Both the position numbers and the translations under genes were made by a program. DNA of 64,000 nucleotides from Dictyostelium discoideum (taxonomy: Eukaryota). The DNA lies in NCBI GenBank assembly GCA_000004695.1, contig CM000155.2, forward strand, positions 1,440,001 through 1,504,000. Reading direction: 5' to 3'. Below the pieces are notes generated by a model. The model searched no databases and was not told the DNA's origin. It worked only from the letters and a program-made list of their open reading frames with translations. Positions 7,591 to 8,515 of the stretch are shown here, one piece after another (positions within the stretch are counted from its first letter, which is position 1; each line of letters begins with the position of its first letter).

Positions 7591-8515
7591 TGAGGAGTTT
7601 AAAGAATTTATTGAGATTAATTCTTCATATCTTCTATTAAATCTTAAGAAAACCTCAACTAATCTATTCATTACTTCACTAATTGATTTTTCATAAATTT
7701 CAACTTTAGTAATTGGGATTATTGGTTGAATATTTCTTGGTGTTGGTAATGGTGATGGTAAATAAAAACCATTATTACCATTATTAGCATTACCATTATT
7801 ATTTGTATTTGTTGAATCAATAGTTTGTAATTGTTGTTGATATTGTTTTTTATAAAGGTTATAATGTAAATCAAAATATGATTTTAAATATGATTCCAAT
7901 GAATTATATGCATTACTTAATAATTTACTATTATAATTTGATGCTGATGAAGATGAGGATGAACCAATATTATAATTATTTGAATTATTATTTGTAAAAT
8001 AACTACCACTTGTACTAAATGTTGAATATCTATAATTATTACCAATTGTTAAATAATCATAATCAAAATTCTTTAAATATTTAAATGAAGGATATGATGA
8101 ACTAATTGCATTATTTTGTGTTGGTGTATATGATGAAGTTGCTGATGTACTTTTTTGTAATTTTGGTGTTAAAGCATCATTATTAATTAAATTATCATTA
8201 TTATTATTATAATTATTATTATTATTAGAACAATTTGTTGTTGTGGTTGTTGTAGTAGTGGTAGGTTGTTGTGGTTGTTGTTGTTGTTTAACATTTGATA
8301 ATGATAGAGGTGGACAACTGGATATAATCTTGGTGATGGCAATGTTGGTGATGAGTAAGAGTATGATAATGAAGATGGGGTTAACATTCTTTCAATTTTT
8401 TTCATTTTTCCTAATTTATTTTCTTCTTTTTTACTACCACTATGATTATTATTACTATTATTACTATTAGTAGTAGTGGTAGTTGTAGGAGTAGAAGTAT
8501 TGTTATTATTGTTAA

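Follow-up and report, generated by a model that had tools for sequence, protein, structure and literature searches.

A RING-patatin gene of Dictyostelium discoideum interrupted by a one-base frame discontinuity

The window, a 64,000-nucleotide stretch of Dictyostelium discoideum DNA analysed as a whole, has a base composition of about 21% GC and 79% AT. It is rich in AAT and CAA repeats and contains short, extremely AT-rich introns. Its closest relatives are Dictyostelium proteins, and together these features suggest a group-4 Dictyostelium genome. On its minus strand, two long open reading frames, frame B and frame A, overlap and are assigned to one reconstructed gene for a RING-patatin protein (Table 1). 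Several other features surround this gene. The start of the window (15..245, plus strand) holds the putative C-terminal end of an ATP synthase gamma-subunit-like ORF, LQYNRARQAMITSELIEIVSGASA, recognized by eye. A presenilin-like gene (2980..4348, minus strand) follows downstream of the RING-patatin gene. It encodes a GLGDF motif and multiple hydrophobic segments in two exons, which are separated by a 73-nt GTATGT...AAAG intron at 3835..3763. Upstream, a (TG)n microsatellite is located at 10703..10722 (minus strand) in AT-rich intergenic DNA. Further upstream, a gene for a protein with RING and WD40 domains occupies 14104..15853 (minus strand) and contains a 68-nt GTAAGT...CAG intron at 15520..15453. 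Its counterpart in D. purpureum lies at 224..2196 of contig GL871455.1, with 48-74% identity.

Table 1. Coordinates of the RING-patatin gene, its reading frames, domains and conserved blocks, and of introns in the window
Feature	Position	Strand	Description
Whole reconstructed gene	4957..10121	minus	~1722 codons, intronless, one frame break
Gene ends	ATG at 10121, stop at 4959..4957	minus	ORF calls and start context
Frame B ORF	8187..10121	minus	644 codons plus stop, ATG start, low-complexity N-terminal region
Frame A open frame	4957..8391	minus	1144 codons plus stop; middle region, RING, patatin, C-terminal domain
Frames A and B jointly open	8187..8391	minus	205 nt, from stop positions
Conserved block 1	8322..8378	minus, frame B	PSSLSYSYSSPTLPSPRLY; ortholog PSSLAYSYSSPALPSPKL; last frame B match
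Inferred frame break	8313..8327	minus	within TTA TAT CCA GTT GTC CAC; codon-likelihood change-point
Candidate intron of the first-pass annotation	8150..8292	minus	143 nt, GTTAAAC...AAAAAAG; rejected
Conserved block 2	8074..8166	minus, frame A	PKLQKSTSATSSYTPTQNNAISSSYPSFKYL; ortholog PVLQKSTSSTSAYTSYQNSVISSSYPSFKNL; first frame A match
RING-type C3HC4 finger	6862..6966	minus	CFGCLLSVPSIECSPCGHVICSYCSIEQNGNCTIC; C-x2-C-x11-C-x-H-x2-C-x2-C-x7-C-x2-C
Patatin-like phospholipase domain	5677..6708	minus	PF01734
Asn-rich insertion at oxyanion-loop position	6460..6681	minus	~75 aa
Patatin motifs	GSSSG 6360..6346; FRDGG 5721..5707	minus	motif search; DGG = catalytic Asp motif
Conserved C-terminal domain	4960..5514	minus	LLSSLFYLD ... 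TSISGCPFNL; common to dictyostelid and fungal paralogs
Verified local introns	3835..3763, 15520..15453, 52879..52795		join long ORFs in frame

The frame discontinuity reported by the first-pass annotation has been confirmed, and it lies in a genuine gene. Frame B ends with the stop codon 8189..8187. Direct translation places the last upstream stop codon of frame A at 8394..8392 and leaves the frame open from 8391 onward. The overlap of the two frames, given before as about 140 nt, is present and measures 205 nt (8391..8187). The downstream ORF as listed extends from 7899 to 4957, and its first start-like codon at 7899 is a TTG, as had been stated. More than 200 codons above the catalytic region had been described as devoid of ATG. 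This holds for the first 240 open codons of frame A, the first ATG being codon 241 (7671), but five ATGs still precede the patatin domain. At the base composition of the window, stop codons are expected with a frequency of 0.094 per codon. The chance of 644 open codons is then about 2e-28, that of 1144 open codons about 5e-50, and both ORFs therefore lie far above chance. The ATG at 10121 has the context AAAATG and is preceded by AT-rich intergenic DNA (GC under 0.07). A codon log-odds model was derived from the window's remaining long ORFs. Over 10121..8322, frame B scores +285 with no stops, compared with -1204 (178 stops) and -408 (34 stops) for the two alternative frames. Over 8318..4960, frame A scores +615 with no stops, and the other frames are strongly negative and stop-filled. 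The passage from frame B to frame A requires an intron of 3n+2 length, one absent base or a -1 shift.

In the joined product of about 1722 aa, a low-complexity N-terminus is followed by a helical middle region, then by a C3HC4 RING and a patatin domain and, at the C-terminus, by a conserved domain. The expected combination of a patatin-like lipase and a RING-like finger on a low-complexity scaffold was thus recovered, in a protein longer than the estimated 1600 aa. ORF B matched no Pfam domain. The patatin domain was recognized by Pfam with 68.2 bits (cut-off 27.7, E 1.4e-18), and its GSSSG and FRDGG motifs align with GSSTG and YRDGA of the D. purpureum ortholog. All eight metal ligands of the RING are present in the canonical spacing C-x2-C-x(9-39)-C-x(1-3)-H-x(2-3)-C-x2-C-x(4-48)-C-x2-C, a pattern also seen in the ortholog and the paralogs. 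The profile zf-C3HC4_3 yielded 21.2 bits with the whole frame and 25.4 bits (E 1.2e-5) with the isolated segment, both below the cut-off of 27, so that 'RING-like' is the right wording. The Pfam search suggested earlier for both domains accordingly confirmed PF01734 above its cut-off and left the RING under it. The canonical oxyanion loop DGGGxRG near the start of the patatin domain is absent and reads DGCNNIDT. The region has the form SLDG-CNNIDT...(N-rich)...-GFSKSG, compared with SLDGGGGIRS in D. purpureum and LDGGGIRG in the paralogs. The loss of this loop makes the catalytic competence of the patatin domain uncertain. As judged from these motifs, the protein may be a catalytically impaired pseudo-lipase which has kept GxSxG and DGG.

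With frame A as query, phmmer detected paralogs (E 3.5e-36 to 1e-14, two to five collinear matching stretches) from dictyostelids and fungi as well as from uncultured eukaryotes. Dictyostelid and fungal examples, annotated as 'patatin family protein' or PNPLA-domain protein, comprise about 1050-1190 aa: XP_003283383.1 of D. purpureum, KYQ91383.1 of Tieghemostelium lacteum, XP_004360600.1 of Cavenderia fasciculata and KAF2267002.1 of Lojkania enalia. Their E-values range from 3.5e-36 down to 4.7e-15. The middle region, the RING, the patatin domain and the C-terminal domain (LSSLFYL..., ...TSISG.PF) are shared with the window gene in the same order. A BLASTP alignment with one paralog (P0005) spans aa 303 to 1136 of frame A. 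In the paralogs, the N-terminus is formed by a Cys/His-rich finger together with a Walker A P-loop module (GxxGxGKS). Both the window gene and the D. purpureum ortholog have about 750 aa of low-complexity sequence in place of these two elements; the window gene contains no GxxGxGKS motif and shows no alignment to the first ~450 residues of the paralogs. No second paralog of the gene was found within the window.

The paralogs apparently represent an uncharacterised eukaryotic architecture of dictyostelids, fungi and metagenomic eukaryotes. The order of elements is Cys/His finger, Walker A P-loop, helical region, C3HC4 RING, patatin and conserved C-terminal domain. Pfam recognizes the patatin part alone, and a comparison of the P-loop module with PDB sequences gave nothing significant (best E 0.04). 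In frame A of the window gene, the SSYPSFKYL region at 8074..8100 (NNAISSSYPSFKYL) is conserved in D. purpureum and weakly resembles SYPRL(L/F)YI of the paralogs' P-loop module, with a BLASTP E of 5.2, which is not significant. SSYPSFKYL may be what remains of an N-terminal domain that has degenerated. Among solved structures, those closest to the patatin domain are bacterial patatin/CBASS CapV phospholipases (PDB 9wn0, 9kh6, 9kh7 and 8zr9) and human iPLA2-beta (6aun). By sequence, they match with E 1.4e-10 to 1.9e-4, the bacterial patatin/CapV being nearest (1.4e-10). CapV, iPLA2-beta and the window protein have the GxSxG and DG[GA] dyad motifs in common, and the similarity is confined to the domain level. 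The solved structures possess no RING, low-complexity scaffold or C-terminal domain, whereas the window protein is devoid of the glycine-rich oxyanion loop.

The best match to frame A in an exhaustive phmmer search was XP_003294192.1 (DICPUDRAFT_93179) of D. purpureum, a protein of 437 aa with 51% identity (E 5e-93). On contig GL871455.1, the model for this protein (7173..8486) is adjacent to a model of 705 aa (4614..6728). Both sit within one uninterrupted ORF of 1290 codons (4614..8486), so the split into two models is an annotation artefact, and the models should probably be merged. The N-terminus of this ORF, MVSNKNNYHSKSHS, corresponds to that of ORF B, MVSNENKNKIKSQS (MVSNKNN... vs MVSNENK...). 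In BLASTP comparisons, ORF B aa 567-600 (ENKLGKMKKIERMLTPSSLSYSYSSPTLPSPRLY, 8423..8322) aligns with aa 404-436 of the D. purpureum ORF (E 3e-4). Frame A aligns with the same ORF from aa 76 (PKLQKSTSATSSYTPTQNNAISSSYPSF, at 8166) to the C-terminus (E 3e-94 and 4e-58). The ortholog pattern PSSL.YSYSSP.LPSP.L is found in frame B, and P.LQKSTS to the end follows in frame A. Overall identity amounts to 46% over 1210 aligned positions. The alignment indicates neither an intron nor a frame change at this point in the sister species. Since the D. purpureum ORF is uninterrupted and covers both frames, ORFs B and A are halves of one gene, and the earlier statement that the two pieces must be joined is correct. 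The ortholog shares with the window gene the MVSN.N start, the blocks flanking the break, the RING, the patatin and the C-terminal domain. It differs in its unbroken ORF, the retained DGGGGIRS oxyanion loop and shorter Asn-rich inserts. The RING-WD40 gene is the immediate upstream neighbour of the patatin gene in D. discoideum and D. purpureum alike, with position and orientation kept, which identifies the D. purpureum locus as the positional ortholog. Synteny is one-sided only, because D. purpureum carries another gene on the downstream side, encoding a 1435-aa DUF7034/7035 protein on the opposite strand.

Two independent genes, or a gene fission, would provide a 644-aa low-complexity protein and a separate RING-patatin protein, the latter expressed from the internal ATG at 7671 (904 aa) or from an upstream exon of its own. 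Frame B does have a proper stop at 8187, the ATG at 7671 lies upstream of RING and patatin, and the D. purpureum annotation likewise gives two models, of 705 and 437 aa. These models share one unbroken ORF, however, and at the D. discoideum locus no AT-rich spacer was found between the ORFs when GC was measured in 60-nt steps. GC reaches a local maximum of 0.37-0.40 in 8240..8360, compared with 0.03-0.08 in the flanking intergenic DNA (4700..4999 and 10100..10279). Furthermore, the 240 ATG-less codons of frame A above 7671 are open, for which the chance is about 5e-11, and they hold the D. purpureum-conserved PKLQKSTS..SSYPSF and LESYLKSYFDLHY. Two genes are accordingly very improbable. An atypical spliceosomal intron, either 8292..8150 or another GT-AG pair, would join frames B and A within one gene. 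The candidate of the first-pass annotation, GTTAAAC...AAAAAAG, shares the GT...AG ends with typical Dictyostelium introns, and its length of 143 nt (3n+2), and not about 155 nt, is phase-consistent and restores the frame. Dictyostelium introns are commonly 70-150 nt long, and the candidate is comparable in length to three verified introns of the window (68-85 nt). These, however, contain 3.5-15% GC, begin with the donors GTATGT, GTAAGT or GTAATG, and have one to seven stops and log-odds of -9 to -48 in every frame. The candidate has a GC fraction of 0.231 and the donor GTTAAA, and unlike the genuine introns it codes well in frame A (+30.7 over 47 codons, no stops). Its removal would also delete at its 3' end P-K-L-Q-K-S, which is conserved in D. 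purpureum, and the D. purpureum ortholog has no intron here. On composition, coding score and conservation, the candidate was rejected.

All GT-AG pairs of 3n+2 length were enumerated (62-80% AT), and each intron fitting both open frames would delete conserved sequence. On the coding strand, AG occurs in 8330..8140 only at 8319/8318, 8151/8150 and 8143/8142, which leaves 8318 and positions from 8150 downward as the possible ends of a canonical intron. Because AG is absent from 8317 to 8152, no GT-AG intron fits between the conserved blocks, and the intron reading is rejected on this ground. The only candidate ending at 8318, 8385..8318 (68 nt, 38% GC), would delete LTPSSLSYSYSSPTLPSPRLYP and with it block 1; LTPSSLSYSYSSPTLPSPRLYP is the best conserved stretch of ORF B and scores +12.8 in frame B. 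An intron of any such form is thus regarded as highly unlikely. Very probably the intron is absent, and the frame break is the equivalent of a one-base indel within one gene.

The position of the break was derived from the codon likelihoods. The likelihood of a switch from B to A is highest once the frame B codon at 8318 has been read; the interval within 2 log units of this maximum is 8327..8315. A switch at or below 8291 is at least 7 log units worse, and one within the AAT tract more than 20. The best placement of the break, which amounts to one missing or two additional bases, is a short distance before the CAA/ACA/AAT tracts. A 1-nt frameshift, named in the first-pass annotation as the second option, is thereby favoured over the intron, though at a site upstream of the CAA/AAT-rich tract and not inside it. 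Beyond the break, frame B remains open for about 43 further codons, which score poorly in the codon table of the window. Both frames are open past the break because the off-frame CAA/ACA/AAT repeats (AAC, CTA, ATA) lack stops. A route through the third frame, or a double shift, is impossible with 15 stops in the spacer. A CCCC run at 8380 was considered as an error site and dismissed, block 1 downstream of this run still being in frame B. The inferred site itself, CCAGTTGTCCACC, contains no homopolymer or simple repeat. Long ORFs elsewhere in the window, with up to 1616 codons, show no breaks, which makes the frame break an isolated event.

Frame B codes upstream of about 8327..8313 and frame A downstream, and the break is equivalent to one missing base. 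The missing base may be an uncorrected error in the sequence record, in which case the organism would make the full-length protein. Judged largely on prior expectations, this is the likeliest single explanation and is given about an even chance. Exactly one frame break occurs in about 1722 codons, with strongly positive coding log-odds on both sides. Below the break, 1119 codons stay open, with GxSxG, DGG and the full set of eight RING ligands preserved. The intact downstream frame and motifs imply that the gene is, or very recently was, under selection, which agrees with a record error or with a lesion of very recent origin. A processed or old pseudogene was discarded, there being only one lesion and a coding signal retained on both sides. 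Base-calling errors cluster in homopolymers and simple repeats. It stands against a record error that the inferred site has neither, and that signs of relaxed constraint would make a real loss-of-function allele tolerable. These signs are the replacement or interruption of the oxyanion loop by the Asn-rich insertion of about 75 aa and the absence of the paralogs' zinc-finger and P-loop. A real, young deletion of a single base (or a 2-nt insertion) at about 8320 is a substantial possibility, though held with less than even confidence. The locus would then be a strain-level or very recent loss-of-function allele, a nascent pseudogene, and the protein would be truncated after about 600 genuine residues with an off-frame tail ending at 8187. 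The site outside a homopolymer agrees with such a lesion, as does its singularity, which is expected of a very young pseudogene; the lost oxyanion motif, the Asn-rich insertion and the missing P-loop module suggest a dispensable or changed function. Against it, the 1119 downstream codons are open in 79% AT DNA with a strong coding score, and the catalytic and RING motifs are intact, so that any inactivation must be extremely recent. On priors, isolated one-base errors in an AT-rich, repeat-flanked assembly are considered at least as common as single-lesion pseudogenes.

A genuine break could also be bypassed by programmed recoding, either a -1 ribosomal frameshift or transcriptional slippage, so that a short frame B product would be accompanied by full-length RING-patatin protein in regulated amounts. 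Formally, the change from B to A is a -1 shift, and the 205 nt around the break are open in both frames. Neither a slippery site nor a stable RNA structure was found around the break, however: the heptamer X_XXY_YYZ is absent from frame B in 8400..8190, and the 131 nt downstream (8330..8200) fold with -5.8 kcal/mol (z = -0.5 vs shuffles). The ortholog needs no recoding, and programmed recoding is rejected for lack of support. Non-canonical recoding at about 8320, by a -1 frameshift or polymerase slippage with no classical slippery site and with some full-length protein made, is extremely improbable. If true, the 644-aa low-complexity protein would be the default product and the enzyme would be formed only conditionally. 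All readings other than a record error and a young real frameshift are, taken together, unlikely.

Database searches were made for independent copies of the locus. Word-index searches with the whole frame A, the masked fused protein and the C-terminal 185 aa revealed no same-species protein for the locus. Exact look-ups with ORF B, frame A from the ATG at 7671 and frame A from the ATG at 6711 had no match, nor had those with the WD40 exon and the 701-aa ORF at 18128. Metagenome contigs contained no match to a gapped DNA pattern across the break.

The locus is a real gene with a one-base frame discontinuity and as such an ordinary matter of annotation and sequence quality. It leaves current knowledge unchallenged. 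For annotation, one intronless gene of about 1722 codons with a flagged frameshift is the appropriate model; the locus should neither be divided into two genes nor be given an invented intron. Should the frameshift prove real, the source strain would be a natural null for the RING-patatin protein, which is relevant before this uncharacterised family is studied.

A Dictyostelium phosphoproteome paper lists two patatin genes, DDB_G0292746 and DDB_G0292858 (PMC6397043). Their peptides are absent from the window gene, and (phospho)peptides of the window gene are absent from the supplements searched. The motif [S/T]PR has been reported as a target of the MAP-kinase ErkB in Dictyostelium (PMC6397043). 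In frame B, block 1 contains an SPR motif at 8322..8339 (LPSPRL), where D. purpureum has SPK.
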